Below are positions 3,069 through 52,857 of a stretch of 53,268 nt of DNA, in pieces; position 1 is the first letter of the stretch, and each line of letters starts with the position of its first letter. The DNA is from Escherichia phage Ecp_YSF. A program made the translations under genes and the position numbers. The notes below the pieces were generated by a model. It had not been told where the DNA came from and searched no databases. It was given only the letters and a program-made list of their open reading frames with translations. Location: sequence record OR327751.1; one strand, written 5' to 3'.

Positions 3069-5003
3069 GTGTTGTATCCTTGGGAAAATATGTATGCCAG
3101 TGACATTGAAACAACTGGTCTGTTGGAGCAAATGCGTAAGCAAGCTGCACCACGTCTTCACAACATCGGGTATATCGATGTTCTGACTCGTGAAGAAACT
3201 GTAATAGAGTGGACCGACAGAAAGTCTATCCAGGCATTTCTGGATACAGGCCCAACATTAATCATGCACAACGGCGCAACCTTCGACTTTGAAGCACTGA
3301 GGTTCCTTGGTTACGACGTTTCAAAATGTACACTAATTGATACTTTGTTTATCAGTTGGTATCTGCAACCTCGTCGTGTTAAGCACGGCTTAGAAGGTTA
3401 CGGCGAAGAGTTTGGTGTGCCAAAACCAGTCATTGAAGATTGGGAAAATCAAACTCAAGAAGAGTACAACCATCGTGTGATGGAAGACTGCAAGATTCAG
3501 TTGAAGCTGTGGGAACAGCAATACATTCAACTCTTAAAGATTTATAAATCTCCTGGCGAAGTTAAACGCTTCGTTGAATATCTGATGACAAAAGCTCGTC
3601 AACAGGTTATTCAGCAACGAACTCGCTGGAAGTTAAACATTGAGAAGGCACTGGCATTTAAGGCCAAGCTGGAACCAATGATTAAAGAGAAGACGGACGC
3701 ATTGGAAGCATCAATGCCGCGTGTTCCGGAATATGTTATCAAAACCCGTCCAGCTAAATGCCACAAGATGAACGGGCAACTGTCTGCCACTGGAATTAAG
3801 TGGAAGGCTATTTGTGATGCAAACGGTTTGGACTGGAAAGACCCAGACCTGGCTATAAAAGTTCTTAAAGGCTATAAGAAGCCTAATGCTGGTTCACATG
3901 TTCAAATTAAAGACTGGTTGTTCAGCCTAGGTTGGGAACCAGAAACCTTTAAGTTTGACCGTAATAAGGAAACAGGTGAAACTCGCCAGATTCCACAAAT
4001 CACTGTGAAGGATGAAGATGGCAATCCTGAAATATGTCCGAGCTTGCATAAGCTGGCGGAAAGAAACCCCGACTCTGGTATTCAACATCTTATTGGGATG
4101 GGCGTGTATAAACACCGTCTGTCTGTTGTTAATGGCTTCCTTCGCGACGTCGATGAAGATGGGTTCCTTACTGCACGATGTGGTGGCCTTACCAATACTT
4201 TACGCCTTAAACATCGCGAACTTGTTAACCTCCCTTCTATTCGTGTATTTGGCGGTGAAGAACTGCGTTCAATGTTGGAAGCGTGGCGCGAAGATTACGA
4301 ACAGTTAGGCTCTGACTTGTGCTCACTGGAAGACCGTTGTAAGCACCACTTCCAGTGGATGTATGACCCTGAATACGTTAAGAAGCAGTTGGCACCAGAC
4401 TATGATGCTCACCTTGCAATTGGCGTAATTGGCGGATTTATTACCGAACAGGAATCTCAGGACCACAAGGACGGGATTAAGAAGTGTAAACAACGTCCAA
4501 TGTTTAAGACTACAAACTATGCTTGTCAGTATGGTGCTGGTGTACCAACTGTAGCTCGTTCTGCTGGCTGTGACCAGACTACTGCTGCACGACTGCATAA
4601 AGCATATTGGGACTTGAACTGGTCTATTAAAGAGATTGCTGCCAACACCAAAGTTGTAACAATTGATGGTCAGATGTGGCAACAGAATCCAGTAAACAAA
4701 TTCTGGTATTCGTTGCGTACAGAGAAAGACCGCTTCTCCACATTGTGTCAGGGCACTGGTGCATATGTGTTTGATGTTTGGTGTAACAACATCATTGCAA
4801 TTTGTAATGAACGTTGGGGCTGTGACCCGCTTCTGTCTGGACAATTCCATGATGAATTGATTCTCCAAGTTAAGAAAGGTTTCCGTGATTTGTGGACGGA
4901 CTTGCTTAATGAAGCAATGGACCGGACCAACAAAGAACTTAAACTCAATCGTGATTGTGCATGTGATGTACAATTTGGCGATAACTACGCAGAGATTCAC
5001 TAA
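3069..5003 (+). CDS. family A DNA polymerase with 3'-5' exonuclease (T7 gp5-like)
   Basis: Exo I motif DIETTGL. Polymerase motifs DLCSLEDR (A), KTTNYACQYGAG (B) and QFHDELILQV (C). GTG 3069 has GGAG at 3057-3060. Confidence 0.9.
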   Translation: MLYPWENMYASDIETTGLLEQMRKQAAPRLHNIGYIDVLTREETVIEWTDRKSIQAFLDTGPTLIMHNGATFDFEALRFLGYDVSKCTLIDTLFISWYLQPRRVKHGLEGYGEEFGVPKPVIEDWENQTQEEYNHRVMEDCKIQLKLWEQQYIQLLKIYKSPGEVKRFVEYLMTKARQQVIQQRTRWKLNIEKALAFKAKLEPMIKEKTDALEASMPRVPEYVIKTRPAKCHKMNGQLSATGIKWKAICDANGLDWKDPDLAIKVLKGYKKPNAGSHVQIKDWLFSLGWEPETFKFDRNKETGETRQIPQITVKDEDGNPEICPSLHKLAERNPDSGIQHLIGMGVYKHRLSVVNGFLRDVDEDGFLTARCGGLTNTLRLKHRELVNLPSIRVFGGEELRSMLEAWREDYEQLGSDLCSLEDRCKHHFQWMYDPEYVKKQLAPDYDAHLAIGVIGGFITEQESQDHKDGIKKCKQRPMFKTTNYACQYGAGVPTVARSAGCDQTTAARLHKAYWDLNWSIKEIAANTKVVTIDGQMWQQNPVNKFWYSLRTEKDRFSTLCQGTGAYVFDVWCNNIIAICNERWGCDPLLSGQFHDELILQVKKGFRDLWTDLLNEAMDRTNKELKLNRDCACDVQFGDNYAEIH

Positions 5004-5264: not shown

Positions 5265-6131
5265 ATGGCATTTGCTGCTCCTACACTGGCCTCGAACAAG
5301 ACTCCTTCTGCTGCACCATTACTGGAAGCGGGTGGTTATCCTGCTCGTGTTTGCCGTATTATCGACCTGGGCTTACAGCCTGGTTCTGCTAAATATCCTA
5401 CTCCGTCCTTGAAACTTCTGGTTACTTTCGAACTGCTCGACGAGTACATGAAAGAAGTTGACAGTGAAGGTAAAATGGTCATGGTCCAAGACCCAGACGA
5501 AGATGACGGCATCATGATGGCGAAGAATCTTGAAGACAAGCCGCGTTGGTTTGACTTTGAGTTTACCTATAATGCTGACGGCTTCATGGGTGAGAACTCC
5601 CACATCTACAAATTCGCTAAGGCGATTGATGCACTGGAAGTTAAACCTAATCTGGAACAAGGCATCCAGGGCCATCCTGCCAAGAACCTGCCGGACTGGT
5701 TGGGCGAACCCCTGATTGTTGGCATTGTTCAGTATACCAAGCAGTCAGGTAAGAATGCTGGCCAGGTTGCAAACAAAGTTGCTACCTTCTCTCCGATGAA
5801 ATCTAAGGAGAAGAAAGAAGCTAAAGCTCTGGTTAACCCGACTGTCTTCTTTGACATGTCTGAGCCGGACTTAGAAGTATTCAACAAACTGCCAGGTGGC
5901 GAATCTCCGTATGCAATCAAGAACCGTATTACTTCCGGTGTTGATTTCTACAAGACTAAGCTGTCTGCACTGTTAGGCGGTAAACCTGCCGATGAAGGCG
6001 CTGTACCGAATCAGGCTTCTGATGAAGAAGTTGATGCAGCTATGAAAGCTGAACTGGAAGCACAGGCTGCTGCAAAAGCACAGCGTGAAGCAGAAGGTGG
6101 CGCTGCTGGCGGTACGGGTATGCCGTTCTAA
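5265..6131 (+). CDS. putative ssDNA-binding/annealing protein (T7 gp2.5-like)
   Basis: Lies between the polymerase and exonuclease genes. Strongly biased codon usage and a strong terminator just downstream. Ala/Gly/acidic C-terminal tail ends in an aromatic residue (..GGTGMPF). Function assigned by analogy only. Confidence 0.45.
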   Translation: MAFAAPTLASNKTPSAAPLLEAGGYPARVCRIIDLGLQPGSAKYPTPSLKLLVTFELLDEYMKEVDSEGKMVMVQDPDEDDGIMMAKNLEDKPRWFDFEFTYNADGFMGENSHIYKFAKAIDALEVKPNLEQGIQGHPAKNLPDWLGEPLIVGIVQYTKQSGKNAGQVANKVATFSPMKSKEKKEAKALVNPTVFFDMSEPDLEVFNKLPGGESPYAIKNRITSGVDFYKTKLSALLGGKPADEGAVPNQASDEEVDAAMKAELEAQAAAKAQREAEGGAAGGTGMPF

Positions 6132-6179: not shown

Positions 6180-7202
6180 GTGAGTAAGAAACGAGTTTTG
6201 TTGCTGGTTGACGGCGACATGGTTGCATTCAGTCACTGTGCTGCTGAGGAATACGGCAAAGATTCAGAAGATATTAACTTTGCTAAGATTCAAATGTCAA
6301 TGGATTCCAAGATGGAATTCCTTGCGAAACGTGTAGGAGCTACAGAAGTAGTTACCTGCATTTCACCATCCAAAACATTCCGTAACGTTCTTGCCGAAAA
6401 TTACAAAGGCAACCGTGATGATGTTTGGCGACCAGAAAACTTGAAGAATGCGAAAGCACATCTTATGGTTGCCTGGAATGGCGTATGGATGAAAGGTTTG
6501 GAAGCAGATGACCTCCTTGCCGTATTCGCACGTCATGAATACGAAATGACAATGGGTAAACGTAATGAGATTAAGAGCCTCAAGCGCATTGGTCCTTGCA
6601 CATATGATGAAGTCTGGATTGCGTCGCTGGACAAAGACTTGCGACAAATCGGGCAGAATGGTGGTGCTGGTCCAGTAATTAAACATTACCAATGGGAACG
6701 AGAAACCCAAAACATTGGCGAGAAGGTTGTAACTCCGCAGGATTACGGCGAACTCAAATTAATCATCAAGGACAATGGCAAATCGAAGAAGAAAGAAGTT
6801 AAAGGCAATGGCCCTAAATTCTTCTTGCACCAATTGCTTATTGGCGACTCAACGGATAACGTTATGGGTTGCGGAGTTCTTGAAGAAAGAATCTACAAAA
6901 CTGGTGCCAAAGCCGGAGAAACTTATTTCCGTCGTGACGGCATTGGTGCAGTCGCTTCATTCGAGATGCTGGATGGTACAACCTCCTATGCAGAAGGTTT
7001 GAAGAAAGTTATTGGTGCATACATTATGCGCTTCGGAGATGGTTGGGAACAAGAGCTACTCAAAGTGGGCCGTCTTGTTTACATGCACCATCAAATTGAA
7101 AAGGGTAATTGTGTTCGCTTATGGCATTACAAGAACATTAACGAATACTTTGACCTTAAAGAGAATCGTATCCTCACTCAAGAAGAGTACCTCCATAAAT
7201 AA
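6180..7202 (+). CDS. 5'-3' exonuclease / flap endonuclease (T7 gp6-like)
   Basis: Acidic FEN/PIN motifs LLLVDGDMVAF and GLEADDLLA. GTG 6180 has GGAG at 6167-6170. The ORF-track start, TTG 6165, lies in the terminator T-tract. Confidence 0.8.
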   Translation: MSKKRVLLLVDGDMVAFSHCAAEEYGKDSEDINFAKIQMSMDSKMEFLAKRVGATEVVTCISPSKTFRNVLAENYKGNRDDVWRPENLKNAKAHLMVAWNGVWMKGLEADDLLAVFARHEYEMTMGKRNEIKSLKRIGPCTYDEVWIASLDKDLRQIGQNGGAGPVIKHYQWERETQNIGEKVVTPQDYGELKLIIKDNGKSKKKEVKGNGPKFFLHQLLIGDSTDNVMGCGVLEERIYKTGAKAGETYFRRDGIGAVASFEMLDGTTSYAEGLKKVIGAYIMRFGDGWEQELLKVGRLVYMHHQIEKGNCVRLWHYKNINEYFDLKENRILTQEEYLHK

Positions 7203-47688: not shown

Positions 47689-47920
47689 TTTAAATATCGC
47701 TGAACTTGAGGCTGGATTGATTGTCCACCACCAGCCTCGAAACACTTTCTATCGTATTCTTGGGCCTACAAAGATTAAAACTCATTGCGGAAGTTGGGTA
47801 GATGGGTTTGCTTACCAAGAAGTTAAGAAGTACGGGGACCATACTTTCTTAAGTATTGATTCTTCTACTATCTACACACGACCGAAAGAGTTATTTGACT
47901 CAGATTGGAAAACGCTATAG
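47681..47920 (+). CDS. DUF1653-like small protein
   Basis: Pattern HHQPRNTFYRILGP...YTRPKELF. Confidence 0.5.
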   Translation: MRDLNIAELEAGLIVHHQPRNTFYRILGPTKIKTHCGSWVDGFAYQEVKKYGDHTFLSIDSSTIYTRPKELFDSDWKTL

Positions 47921-47943
47921 TTCCAGGCGGGTTTCTTCGAAGT

Positions 47944-47971
47944 GCCAAGCGGGTTTTGTACTCGCATTGGC
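47944..47971 (+). terminator. hairpin between the early gene and promoter P6
   Basis: GCCAAGCGGG-TTTTGTA-CTCGC(A)TTGGC: 10 bp with one bulge. Confidence 0.35.
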
Positions 47972-47984
47972 CTTCGGCTTTAGT

Positions 47985-48007
47985 CTGAAACATTAGTGGG
48001 ATTTGAT
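47985..48007 (+). promoter_or_regulatory. phage RNA polymerase promoter P6
   Basis: CTGAAACATTAGTGGGATTTGAT. Confidence 0.5.
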
Positions 48008-48124
48008 TCTGACCACTTAGGGAAGAAAGGCATTATACACTTATCGCCAAATGGGTGTCAAGCACTTTCTTCATTTATTTAATTTATTCTTATTATTCTT
48101 TTTGTTTGGAATATTGGAATAATC

Positions 48125-48147
48125 CTGAAACATTAGTTGGAATTGGA
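48125..48147 (+). promoter_or_regulatory. phage RNA polymerase promoter P7
   Basis: CTGAAACATTAGTTGGAATTGGA, which abuts ATG 48148. Confidence 0.55.
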
Positions 48148-48324
48148 ATGATTAAAGTTCTGGAAAAAGATAACGTAACCTTCGCACGTCAGTGTGGAGG
48201 ATGTTTCTCTGTAGTATCTTACGTGTTCTCTGACTTAAAGATGTACACAGGAAAGAATGACCGAGGATACTTCGCATACAGATTCATTACTTGTCCTGTT
48301 TGCAAGAAGAGTATTCGGCATTAG
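48148..48324 (+). CDS. zinc-ribbon protein (58 aa)
   Basis: CGGC...CPVC. The ORF-track start 48055 gives an AT-rich, low-complexity extension. Confidence 0.5.
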   Translation: MIKVLEKDNVTFARQCGGCFSVVSYVFSDLKMYTGKNDRGYFAYRFITCPVCKKSIRH

Positions 48325-48335
48325 TTGGAATTGAA
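48313..48335 (+). promoter_or_regulatory. phage RNA polymerase promoter P8
   Basis: Core ATTAGTTGGAATTGAA matches at 14 of 16 positions. It overlaps the stop codon of the preceding gene. Confidence 0.6.
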
Positions 48336-48348
48336 ACAACATCAGATA

Positions 48349-48420
48349 AGAGCTTTGTAACTAGGTAGTCCGTCTGGTACCAAGACGTGTGAGAACGTTC
48401 GATTCGTTCTACAAAGCTCT
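48349..48420 (+). ncRNA. tRNA-like RNA element TL1 (acceptor/T-arm intact, reduced D arm, non-decoding anticodon-like loop)
   Basis: 11-bp stem 48349-59/48410-20. T arm GAACG-TTCGATT-CGTTC (48393-48409). Arm CGTCT-GGTACCA-AGACG (48371-48387). Lies 14 nt downstream of P8. Confidence 0.45.
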
Positions 48421-48969
48421 TTTCGATGGAATGTTTCCATCATATACATTTATCTTTTAACATAGGCCAAAGGGCCGGAATACTTATTCGCAGAAAAGCT
48501 ATTCACTTGTTATAGGCGATGTATTGGGATGAATTAGAACTAAATAAGCAAGCTGTTAGGGCTGAATAATTAGAGGGTTGTGCCTCATGCTTATGTTAGT
48601 CATTCGAAAATAGGTTTGTGCCACAAGCTGCTGGTGCTCTGAGGAAGTCGGACAAACAGGGCTTAGAGTGGCATAATCCGCACAAAACCGCGCCACCAGC
48701 TATGCCAAAGCAGGTGGATTGGGTGAATGTATTGGGAAGGGTTGCAAAGCCTCTGCGAGCACGGTATCGCGTATAATAAGTGACGTCTGCGCTGCGTGTA
48801 TCGCACCCTAACGGGAGTAACCCTTCGCCAATGCAGTTATCCAGAATTGACACAAACGGTAGGCAGTGGCCCGATTTTCGGCCTTCCTGTGCTACCCTGT
48901 GGCCTGTTTCATGGGCCAAAAGATGAGAAGAGAAGTCACAAACCCCGAATCGAAAATTGGAGAGTTCCT

Positions 48970-49260
48970 ATGATTCGCAAACATTCTATCCGGGTAATTA
49001 AGGCCCGTAATATTCACACAGGAGAGATGGAAGCATTCGCTTTCTTGGGTGGAAAGTTTTATTTATTTGGTTGGGAAGGAAGTGATTTAAAGTTTGAATT
49101 CTTTATGAATATGTACTCGATTAAAGAGTTGTTAAACAATGCGACCTACGGACCATCCTACATGGAATATTGTTTCGGCAAGCCAGTCGAGCATCTTCTG
49201 TCCAAATCTTTCATTTACAGCTGGACAACAAACCAACCAGTTTACGGAGTTCCATTTTGA
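48970..49260 (+). CDS. hypothetical protein (96 aa)
   Basis: ATG 48970 lies 7 nt after GGAG. The ORF-track start 48796 extends into ORF-free structured sequence. Confidence 0.55.
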   Translation: MIRKHSIRVIKARNIHTGEMEAFAFLGGKFYLFGWEGSDLKFEFFMNMYSIKELLNNATYGPSYMEYCFGKPVEHLLSKSFIYSWTTNQPVYGVPF

Positions 49261-49547
49261 ACTTACAAGACAAATCTAAAGAAGAGTTGATTGAGATTAT
49301 CCAGAAAGAGCACGAACTCGCTGGCATCACAATCAACTATGAACTCCGGGCAATGCAAGCTGTTGCTTTGGGTCATGGTCTAATGGCTACACTCATTCAT
49401 GCCAAGAATGTGTTAGGCATTGACAACGAAAAATACCAAATTCTGGAGAAAGCTGCGCAAGAGCGGATTTCGCAGTGCTTGGTGACATTAGTTGATTTGG
49501 GAATCGACGCAGAAACTGCGAACAAACGTATCCTACAAGGCCACTAA
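49257..49547 (+). CDS. hypothetical protein (96 aa)
   Basis: TTG 49257 shows TTGA coupling with the upstream stop, and GGAG (49246-49249) lies 7 nt upstream. Confidence 0.5.
   Translation: MNLQDKSKEELIEIIQKEHELAGITINYELRAMQAVALGHGLMATLIHAKNVLGIDNEKYQILEKAAQERISQCLVTLVDLGIDAETANKRILQGH
49480..49502 (+). promoter_or_regulatory. weak promoter-like site inside coding sequence
   Basis: GTGACATTAGTTGATTTGGGA. The core matches at 11 of 16 positions. Confidence 0.25.
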
Positions 49548-49548
49548 A

Positions 49549-50223
49549 ATGTCTTATCATGATGATGACAAAGAGATTGCACTATCAACGTGTAAGCAAT
49601 GGCTCAATGATAATGATGCCGTCTATCTTGCCAAGGAAGATGTTATCATTATGTGGGTCCATTTTAATCCAGAATCGAAGCGCGGTGAGTGGCAACGCTA
49701 CAAGATGAAAGAGGCTTGTCGCATAATTAAAGCCACACGCGCTGGCTTCTCTGCTATGAAATACATCAAGCCAGAGATGCTGATGCTTGCTGCACAGGAA
49801 GAAGAACGTGCATATAAGCAAGCTGTTAAATCTCGTTCAACTGTTCCTCCAGAGTTCTTTAATTTGGAGCGCGCTGGACACTTCAACAATTTAGAAATGT
49901 TGACACTGTGCCTGTTGCAAGAATTAGTTGGAAGAGGACAAAACATTGAAGCTGTTTGTCTTGGAGAACTTATGAAAGAGTTGTTCTCGGCAAAGGGCTT
50001 TGCTGTGCCAAATCGAACTTTACGCTGGAAATTGTTGCGAGCAGTCGCTCAAGAAGCTGGTGTAGTTGTTCGTGACAGAACAAACCGACTCACTGTAACT
50101 GGAGTTGGGCGTTTTGTAGCAATCCAGATTGAGGGTTATGACGAATCAATCATCACTGAACTCACTGTCGATGAGACAAAGGATTTAGTAAATAAAACAC
50201 TAGAACGATTCAATAGATACTGA
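49549..50223 (+). CDS. hypothetical protein (224 aa)
   Basis: First ATG after the upstream stop codon. Confidence 0.55.
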   Translation: MSYHDDDKEIALSTCKQWLNDNDAVYLAKEDVIIMWVHFNPESKRGEWQRYKMKEACRIIKATRAGFSAMKYIKPEMLMLAAQEEERAYKQAVKSRSTVPPEFFNLERAGHFNNLEMLTLCLLQELVGRGQNIEAVCLGELMKELFSAKGFAVPNRTLRWKLLRAVAQEAGVVVRDRTNRLTVTGVGRFVAIQIEGYDESIITELTVDETKDLVNKTLERFNRY

Positions 50224-51583: not shown

Positions 51584-51679
51584 GGACGAGTAGCTCAGAA
51601 GGTCTGCTCCAGAGCTTAGTCAGGTAGAGCAATCTGTTCGACAGATGTGTCGTTGGTTCGAATCCAACCTCGTCCACCA
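51584..51679 (+). tRNA. aberrant tRNA (probable anticodon UCG, Arg) with a 19-21-nt hairpin insertion in the D loop and encoded CCA
   Basis: Acceptor GGACGAG/CTCGTCC. T arm GTTGG-TTCGAAT-CCAAC. D stem GCTC/GAGC enclosing the extra hairpin 51599-51617. The anticodon arm is only 15 nt. Confidence 0.6.
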
Positions 51680-52789: not shown

Positions 52790-52857
52790 GGGATTTTCGT
52801 ATGTACGGGCTTGACCGTGGTGAAACGACCTGACTGGTTCGATTCCAGTGAATCCCA
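52790..52857 (+). ncRNA. tRNA-like element TL2 (acceptor stem plus canonical T arm, degenerate lower half)
   Basis: GGGATTT (52790-96) pairs with GAATCCC (52850-56). T arm ACTGG-TTCGATT-CCAGT (52833-49). The middle 36 nt do not form canonical D or anticodon arms. Confidence 0.4.

Follow-up and report, generated by a model that had tools for sequence, protein, structure and literature searches.

A tRNA-shaped RNA structure in an exchangeable slot behind a putative promoter of phages related to Escherichia phage Ecp_YSF

Results

TL1 lies directly downstream of a putative phage promoter

Escherichia phage Ecp_YSF (sequence record OR327751.1; the 53,268 nts of this stretch are called the window here) is a Carltongylesvirus-like member of the Cleopatravirinae in the family Chaseviridae, and all genes of the window are on the + strand. 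We analyzed a tRNA-like element of this phage, termed TL1, which lies between a putative phage promoter and a conserved block of about 530 nts that leads to the gene starting at 48970. The region 47800-49000 is 85-95% identical to the corresponding regions of Escherichia phages PO103-1, Mangalitsa, ST32, SA91KD and phiEcoM-GJ1, of the Yersinia PYps phages and of others. The promoter, cggCATTAGTTGGAATTGAA (48316..48335, + strand), is of the type used by T7-like single-subunit RNA polymerases (RNAP) and corresponds by homology to phiEcoM-GJ1 'putative phage promoter 5', which EF460875 annotates across the bases that align; this promoter was defined by sequence repetition and is putative. The motif CATTAGTTGGAnTnG has 14 matches in the window, compared to 1.5 expected by chance, and 13 of the 14 are on the + strand; three copies stand in tandem within 330 bp (47991, 48131 and 48319). 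A reading made from the letters of the window alone (the sequence-only reading) had placed a promoter ahead of TL1; it gains an annotated homologue and an over-represented motif and remains a predicted one. No TL1-like element was found after the other 12 promoter copies in the window, and no + strand open reading frame (ORF) of at least 40 amino acids (aa) covers 48325-48555.

TL1 is predicted to fold as a cloverleaf with a long closing helix

The promoter is followed by an unstructured purine-rich leader, ACAACAUCAGAU (48336..48347), which is unpaired in every fold and which, through ...AACAUC (48343), shows no variation in the alignments from the E. coli phages to Aeromonas phage phiA050. 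TL1 itself, likewise on the + strand, is enclosed by a 12-bp closing helix or 'acceptor-like' stalk, formed by a 5' strand at 48348..48359 and a 3' strand at 48410..48421 (UACAAAGCUCUU, then UUC, with no CCA). Three arms are found inside. The D-like arm, ACU-AGGU-AGU (48360..48369), has 3 bp and a 4-nt loop. The anticodon-like arm, CGTCT-GGTACCA-AGACG (48371..48387), has a 5-bp stem and the 7-nt loop GGUACCA, which contains the self-complementary hexamer GGUACC (48376-48381). A linker of 5 nts resembling a variable region, UGUGA (48388..48392), is unpaired in the folds and near-invariant (UGUGA, UGCGA or UGAGA), and leads to the T arm GAACG-UUCGAUU-CGUUC (48393..48409), which has the pattern G53, U54 U55 C56 R57 A58, C61. 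RNAfold returns this cloverleaf, with its closing helix, small D-like hairpin, 5-bp/7-nt arm and T arm, and folds the downstream hairpin separately. The minimum free energy of TL1 is -34.8 kcal/mol, compared to -21.7 +/- 3.4 kcal/mol for dinucleotide shuffles (z = -3.87), and none of 200 shuffles was as stable.

Every base and coordinate that the sequence-only reading had quoted for TL1 was found in place, and the T arm, which it called textbook, has the canonical pattern and one covarying pair. The helix that it described, CTTTGTA/TACAAAG (48353-59/48410-16) extended to 11 bp by flanking bases, is present and extended, but as a continuous stalk of 12 bp (48348-59/48410-21). Its designation as an acceptor stem had to be abandoned: the stalk measures 9-16 bp among the versions of this slot and has neither an unpaired discriminator base nor CCA.

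Three helices of TL1 covary and pair as + strand RNA

For the comparison, 22 public phage genomes and a set of related contigs (metagenome and viral) supplied homologous stretches, and pairs were counted in the 12 distinct sequences, from phiEcoM-GJ1/ST32-like Chaseviridae, that could be aligned with the TL1 version of the window; an alignment derived from a covariance model (A3) contained minus-strand hits and was left out of the pair counts. Standard pairs occupied 96.3% of the pair cells, compared to 37-51% when the 3' partners were slid by 1-3 columns. Eight pairs were changed on both sides, and the covariation score was reached by none of 500 column shuffles. The closing helix is 100% paired and five of its 12 pairs covary, for example from GAGC/GCUC to UAAC/GUUA; two pairs covary in the anticodon-like arm, which also has G-U wobbles, and one in the T arm (C-G to U-A). 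The compensatory changes that the sequence-only reading had asked for in relatives are thus present in the closing helix, the anticodon-like arm and the T arm, and the cloverleaf that it drew is supported by covariation in these three helices but not in the D arm.

The 300 pair cells included 11 G-U and no A-C or C-A combinations, which indicates that this pairing is possible only in RNA of the + strand. A covariance model derived from the alignment gave the + strand 106.6 bits and the - strand 27 bits. Combined, covariation in three helices and G-U cells restricted to the + strand uphold the view that TL1 is an RNA structure of the transcribed strand. Unpaired positions are conserved as well. 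The GG of the D-like loop is invariant. In the related versions of TL1 called A, B and 4HA13 (described below), the T loop varies at R57, N59 and N60 only, the positions that are free in tRNAs; by its pattern of substitutions, this loop is under purifying selection as in real tRNAs.

These data bear on the view that TL1 is a decaying tRNA pseudogene or a chance fold devoid of function. The D arm is degenerate and tRNA finders fail on TL1, as such a view would have it, but it has to face the z-score of the fold, the compensatory changes found in three helices, a T loop under purifying selection and the recurrence of palindromic loops described below, and we give it hardly any credence.

The TL1 slot is occupied by at least eight types of cassettes

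TL1 occupies a slot bounded on its 5' side by the invariant leader (...GAAGAAACAACAUC; the leader of the window lacks the GAA repeat) and on its 3' side by the near-invariant hairpin GAUGGAAUGUUUCCAUC. At least eight types of cassettes are found in this slot across the phages. Cassette A, the type of the window, has the loop GGUACCA. It is homologous to cassette B, the ST32 type, with loop CGGCCG(A), and to the cassette of 4HA13, which is homologous to both and has loop CGGCGCCGU and a 16-bp stalk. The sequence of cassette D (BSBP01) differs: it has a 10-bp stalk and the arms UCU-GGGU-AGA and GCCCU-GUGCACA-AGGGU, followed by a T arm with UUCGAGU. The TL1 covariance model nevertheless recovers it (E = 0.003) with the same core architecture, and the GGUAG motif is kept in A, B, 4HA13 and D. 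Cassette E (MLP1, PYps23T and flopper) has a 15-bp stalk, a plain hairpin and the T arm ACAGG-UUCGAUG-CCUGU, and cassette G, from an IMG/VR contig, contains GGCCG-UUCAAUU-CGGUC. The remaining types are a bent hairpin that has no T loop (C, in Pel53 and Faunus), a 9-bp hairpin only (F, in four metagenome contigs) and a hairpin in Aeromonas phage phiA050 (H). In Pectobacterium phage PP101 the promoter is present and is followed by other sequence.

The sole feature common to all cassette types is a closing helix of 9-16 bp, which always starts a few nts after AACAUC and ends a few nts before the invariant hairpin. Different cassettes are found in near-identical backgrounds, for example in PYps3T compared to Pel53 and in locus L051 compared to L155, which indicates that they are exchanged by recombination. 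We therefore describe TL1, on the basis of these sequence comparisons, as one of at least eight interchangeable cassettes positioned directly after a putative phage RNAP promoter. The strict T-arm signature NNNNG-UUCRANN-CNNNN with five pairs is found three times in the window, always on the + strand, compared to 0.27 expected on both strands of 53 kb. Among the cassettes it occurs in the independent families A/B/4HA13, E and G, and in D with one mismatch. A scan of metagenomes with the 17-mer hairpin returned at least 120 stretches, nearly all of them chance matches; among the matches listed, the promoter and leader were present upstream in eight metagenome contigs only. Scans with a 26-mer of promoter and leader gave nothing new in viral contigs and nothing in bacterial genomes.

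The common closing helix raises the possibility that TL1 is a generic structural or processing cassette, in which a stable closed helix suffices as a 5' stabiliser or an RNase III-type site, the interior of a captured tRNA being merely tolerated. T7 offers parallels: RNase III sites lie beside several of its late promoters, the hairpin of the phi10 leader is a 5' stabiliser, and, like TL1, these structures are stable, directly follow a promoter for a single-subunit RNAP and stand at the head of a gene block. They are irregular single hairpins, whereas TL1 branches into a cloverleaf that includes a T loop and a palindromic loop. The plain 9-bp hairpin of class F, the swaps between near-identical backgrounds and the existence of a second swap-tolerant stem in the longer RNA (about 48770-48825) fit a generic cassette. 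It would leave unexplained why the T-loop consensus is under tRNA-like constraint in at least three independent families, why four differing loops are all self-complementary and why the other 12 promoter copies of the window have no such element. We consider this explanation rather unlikely, though one to be taken seriously.

TL1 is not an ordinary decoding tRNA

TL1 shares with the canonical tRNA (RF00005) the order of the four helices in the cloverleaf, the 5-bp T stem with G53-C61 and the loop UUCGAUU, a third arm of 5 bp and 7 nts, a variable region of 5 nts and GG in the D-like loop. It departs from it by the absence of CCA, discriminator and 8-9 linker, by its 12-bp stalk, by its 3-bp/4-nt D arm and by G33 and C37. 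ARAGORN found no tRNA gene in the window or in 22 related loci; no call appeared at a lowered -ps threshold, and -ps80 and the relaxed or mitochondrial settings gave only nonsensical ones. A 91-nt search of TL1 with the Rfam tRNA model gave no match even at E <= 10, Rfam searches of the BSBP01 and MLP1 cassettes gave noise and no tRNA match, and none of the slot cassettes was accepted by the tRNA covariance model or by ARAGORN. In the TL1 loop GGUACCA, position 33 is G instead of U and position 37 is C, a position that is almost always a purine in tRNAs; CGGCCGA and CGGCGCCGU have no U33 either, and only GUGCACA has a U at position 33. An RCCA tail was found in no version of TL1. The checks with ARAGORN and Rfam that the sequence-only reading had proposed therefore gave no tRNA call at TL1, and its statement that the element cannot be an ordinary decoding tRNA is borne out by this rejection together with the missing CCA, G33/C37, the 12-bp stalk and the missing 8-9 linker. 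We firmly conclude from these comparisons that TL1, an RNA structure conserved on the + strand, derives from a tRNA in its T arm and its overall order and is not a decoding tRNA.

The same reading had proposed that TL1 retains the upper half recognised by RNase P and the CCA-adding enzyme. This is not supported, given the missing RCCA tail and the distance from the T loop to the first interruption, which is not conserved: the stack is continuous over about 17 bp in the window, is 16 + 5 bp in 4HA13 and extends over about 8-9 bp before an internal loop in BSBP01. A decoy for anticodon nucleases, also proposed, is weakened, since the loops, which are palindromes lacking U33, mimic no host anticodon loop.

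A broader version of this idea is a released tRNA mimic: RNase P and 3' nucleases would free an RNA of 70-80 nts, CCA would be added, and the product would titrate or divert a host factor directed at tRNAs, be it a defence nuclease, modification enzyme or toxin. RNase P cuts a number of tRNA-like RNAs, among them P1 C4, P4 CI, the T4 stable RNAs, the tRNA-like units of the MHV68 TMERs and MALAT1 mascRNA. The viral and phage members are, like TL1, non-decoding, have an upper half resembling acceptor and T arm and stand at the start of a longer transcript; their processing is demonstrated, and some receive CCA, whereas TL1 is known from sequence and the geometry measured by RNase P is not conserved between its cassettes. 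The canonical T arm, the conserved GG of the D loop and the cloverleaf topology would suit a mimic, the hypervariability of the slot among near-identical phages would fit an arms race, and the same genomes hold other non-canonical tRNA-like elements, some ending in CCA. The mimic is nonetheless doubtful: the leader pairs with the trailer for 3-5 bp past the 7-bp 'acceptor', stalk length is not conserved, U33 is absent save by accident in GUGCACA, position 37 is a pyrimidine or G, and the slot of some phages has no tRNA-like cassette at all.

The other tRNA-like elements lie elsewhere. The tRNA gene that has been reported in ST32 and phiEcoM-GJ1 is not TL1 but another locus about 3.4 kb further downstream (PMC6266442), and the paper on 4HA13 reported no tRNA genes. 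At 51584-51679 (+ strand) the window has a non-canonical tRNA-like element of 96 nts ending in CCA, the homologue of the 95-nt 'tRNA-Arg with intron' of phiEcoM-GJ1 and ST32; ARAGORN reads the ST32 copy as a tRNA-Leu(cag) with a long extra arm and does not call the copy of the window. Further unannotated pieces resembling tRNAs, each with an acceptor helix of 7 bp and a canonical T arm, are found at about 52790-52857 (+ strand) of the window and in the relatives L162 (about 4610-4700 and 5560-5650) and L163 (about 6520-6610), where the copies end in CCA.

The loop of the anticodon-like arm is always self-complementary

Depending on the lineage, the same 7-nt loop carries GGUACC, CGGCCG, GGCGCC or GUGCAC, and the hexamer, followed by A in three of the versions, is always self-complementary. 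By an arithmetic estimate, a random 7-mer contains such a hexamer palindrome in about 1 in 32 cases per lineage. The presence of four different self-complementary hexamers in the same loop across the phages gives substance to the importance that the sequence-only reading attached to the palindrome. The palindrome is off the symmetry axis of the stem, so it is not an extension of the stem, and pairing within a 7-nt loop is impossible. A second copy of the hexamer that could act as a partner in cis was sought within about 3 kb in 17 loci and none was found, which leaves the same loop on another molecule as the only available partner. In the whole window GGTACC occurs once, in the TL1 loop, compared to 5.4 +/- 2.5 occurrences expected; GGCGCC and GGATCC do not occur in the window. 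The 6-bp duplexes of the hexamers have calculated energies of -7.9 to -11.7 kcal/mol, the same range as GCGCGC. Self-complementarity maintained through sequence change is the signature that would be expected of a two-fold homodimer interface, that is, of a symmetric kissing dimer.

Palindromes may also act in DNA, and TL1 could be part of a primary replication origin or a protein operator, its palindromes being protein-binding or cruciform sites. The T7 primary origin consists of tandem phage promoters and an AT-rich stretch. The layout of 47991-48335 recalls it, with the three tandem promoter copies placed around an AT-rich stretch of about 90 bp (G+C about 0.31) containing TGGAAT repeats (TTTGGAATATTGGAATAAT). 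The position, about 20% into the phiEcoM-GJ1 genome, is also like that of the T7 origin, and the 17-bp hairpin at 48425-41 is a perfect inverted repeat as near-invariant as an operator. The helices of TL1 are kept, however, by way of G-U pairs, and these are mismatches both in DNA and on the opposite strand; the loop palindromes vary while the neighbouring proteins are conserved, which a protein site would not tolerate, and they are out of register with the stem. A DNA-level role is in our view very improbable.

TL1 heads a longer conserved structured RNA

The slot ends at the hairpin GAUGGAA-UGU-UUCCAUC (48425..48441, + strand), a perfect 7-bp inverted repeat. It is identical in the 22 public phage genomes and in related metagenome contigs, and L162 and phiA050 have a single A-to-G change that keeps a G-U pair. 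An intrinsic terminator was considered here and rejected: a terminator scan made no call, and the versions of 4HA13, BSBP01, MLP1 and class F have no U run. The 5' arm of the hairpin (48428-39) is complementary to the Shine-Dalgarno region (48958-68) of the gene at 48970, about 530 nts away. This long-range pairing is predicted only; both stretches are near-invariant and two changes in phiA050 are compatible with it. It could be a translational switch, or could close the whole RNA domain.

The intervening segment (48442..48969, + strand), which reaches from the hairpin to the ATG at 48970, has the properties of a conserved structured non-coding RNA of about 530 nts with TL1 as its 5' module. 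From the hairpin (48425) to the ATG the block is 85-93% identical in about 25 phages and contigs and is conserved as far as phiA050. A coding function was rejected for 48442-48969: variable columns show no codon periodicity (67/71/70) and there are 6-11 stops per + frame. Indels in the segment are of 1, 2, 5 and 11 nts, and its G+C content is 0.51-0.55, compared to about 0.42. Public annotations give inconsistent tiny ORFs here or nothing, with gaps of 0.7-1.1 kb in PP101, Faunus, ST32 and EcoM1.

RNAalifold assigned 131 pairs to the downstream block, of which 14 covary, and one 12-bp helix has been wholly replaced, with five compensatory pairs. The divergent full-length homologues of phiA050 and L162 (an IMG/VR contig) add 14 and 16 further compensatory pairs, respectively, and are 57-61% paired, compared to 31-50% for slid controls. 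With Rfam, neither the window at the gathering threshold nor 47900-49600 at E <= 10 gave a match to any family, ROOL, GOLLD, OLE and Y RNA included. In phiEcoM-GJ1 (L003, 1812-2327) about 500 nts of other sequence replace the middle of the block and carry the annotation of a 134-aa 'putative exonuclease SbcC'. In 4HA13 and Faunus, what is shared with the block is limited to its two ends or to its first 200 nts. Such replacement and partial sharing in relatives indicate that the RNA is modular. From the position of TL1, we take a non-coding transcript region of about 630 nts to have TL1 as its 5' end and to run into the next gene, transcription presumably starting at the promoter at 48316..48335.

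Neighbouring genes and other features

Comparison with PHROGs assigned the six neighbouring proteins only to families of unknown function, and a search for related loci with the downstream 224-aa protein returned close relatives only. A small Cys-rich ORF (48055-48324), absent from phiEcoM-GJ1, lies between two of the promoter copies. A perfect sigma-70 consensus (TTGACA, 18-nt spacer, TATAAT; 12/12 matches) is present on the - strand at 48061..48032; it points leftward, antisense to the early genes, and is located where the early block meets the phage-promoter block.

Discussion

TL1 as a rigid 5' domain that may join two transcripts

The reading that we prefer, tentatively and with somewhat less than even confidence, is that TL1 would be the rigid 5' domain of a long phage-polymerase transcript, protecting and organising its 5' end and joining two transcripts by a symmetric loop-loop contact. 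The phage polymerase would transcribe the leader and the cassette first, and the long closing helix and the compact tRNA-like fold would form co-transcriptionally. TL1 probably has an L shape with a tRNA-type elbow because it combines a canonical T arm with a conserved GG in the D-like loop. Once folded, it would give the long RNA a nuclease-resistant, rigid 5' domain from which the hexamer of the 7-nt loop, being exposed, could form a symmetric kissing contact with the corresponding loop of another transcript, and this contact would join two copies of the long RNA. Transcription from the promoter, the L shape, the 5' protection and the dimerisation are the parts of this scheme that we infer.

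Several observations weigh against this scheme. Firstly, the cassettes of Pel53/Faunus, class F and phiA050 have neither a T arm nor a palindromic loop, and class E also counts among those that have no palindromic loop; several phages thus have no palindromic cassette, so that dimerisation through this loop cannot be essential to the family. Secondly, the D arm shows no covariation: two of its pairs are invariant and the first is an A-A mismatch in half of the 12 sequences, so that the elbow has no covariation support either. Thirdly, the 12 distinct sequences represent about three lineages and hence few independent events. Finally, recurrent palindromic loops were sought in the internal variable domain of the long RNA and none was found, and the downstream block could simply be a long regulatory 5' UTR (untranslated region).

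The proposed contact resembles the dimerisation initiation hairpin of HIV-1 (DIS), which dimerises through a kissing loop and has GCGCGC or GUGCAC as loop hexamer. Both loops contain a G+C-rich self-complementary sequence of 6 nts followed by A, BSBP01 has exactly GUGCAC, and in both systems the hexamer varies between lineages and remains a palindrome. Unlike the DIS loop, the loop of TL1 has 7 nts instead of 9 and no 5' purines, and it is part of a tRNA-like fold in the transcript of a DNA phage for which a dimer is proposed from the sequence. The tRNA-like domain of the bacterial Y RNA YrlA has, like TL1, a long stem made from the 5' and 3' ends, a multibranched domain, a T arm and GG in the D loop. 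The ends of YrlA emerge on the side of the anticodon stem and bind Rsr, whereas those of TL1 emerge on the acceptor side; TL1 has no Rsr/RtcB context and Rfam gives no match.

A more far-reaching version, drawn by analogy, would make TL1 the two-fold-symmetric dimerisation handle of a so far undescribed ornate RNA of Chaseviridae phages of about 630 nts (48336-48969), made in bulk from the tandem promoters and homo-oligomerising like OLE, ROOL and GOLLD; TL1 would be its tRNA-shaped rigid connector, and the cassettes would set the pairing partners. Phage-encoded ROOL and GOLLD are found near tRNAs and assemble by conserved intermolecular kissing loops (PMC12286853). The RNA described here shares with ROOL, GOLLD and OLE a length of several hundred nts, a structured non-coding nature, an association with a tRNA or tRNA-like element and variable domains beside a conserved core (PMC12286853). 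It differs from them by the absence of a Rfam match and by its 5' UTR position ahead of a gene, and its oligomerisation is suggested by one loop. We regard this version as unlikely.

Significance for the phage family

The papers searched, Rfam and the annotated records contain no description of TL1 or of the long RNA, and the literature search found no transcriptomes of these phages. The kinds of elements are known, namely tRNA-like viral RNAs, kissing-loop hairpins and large structured phage RNAs. What is new is their combination: a module shaped like a tRNA, whose palindromic loop evolves, occupies an exchangeable slot close to the promoter and heads about 530 nts of structured RNA. The genomes of these phages have been annotated as having no tRNA or one odd tRNA, and the empty space of about 0.6-1.1 kb at this locus holds a conserved structured RNA with, as its first module, a tRNA-shaped fold that has a self-pairing loop. 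The cassette slot constitutes a natural experiment on the RNA features required at the 5' end of a phage-polymerase transcript. If TL1 dimerises, it would give bacterial viruses a counterpart of the kissing-loop dimerisation of retroviruses, with a tRNA as the scaffold, and would add a system from E. coli phages, tractable by T7-style genetics, to the few large phage RNAs of unknown function such as ROOL and GOLLD.

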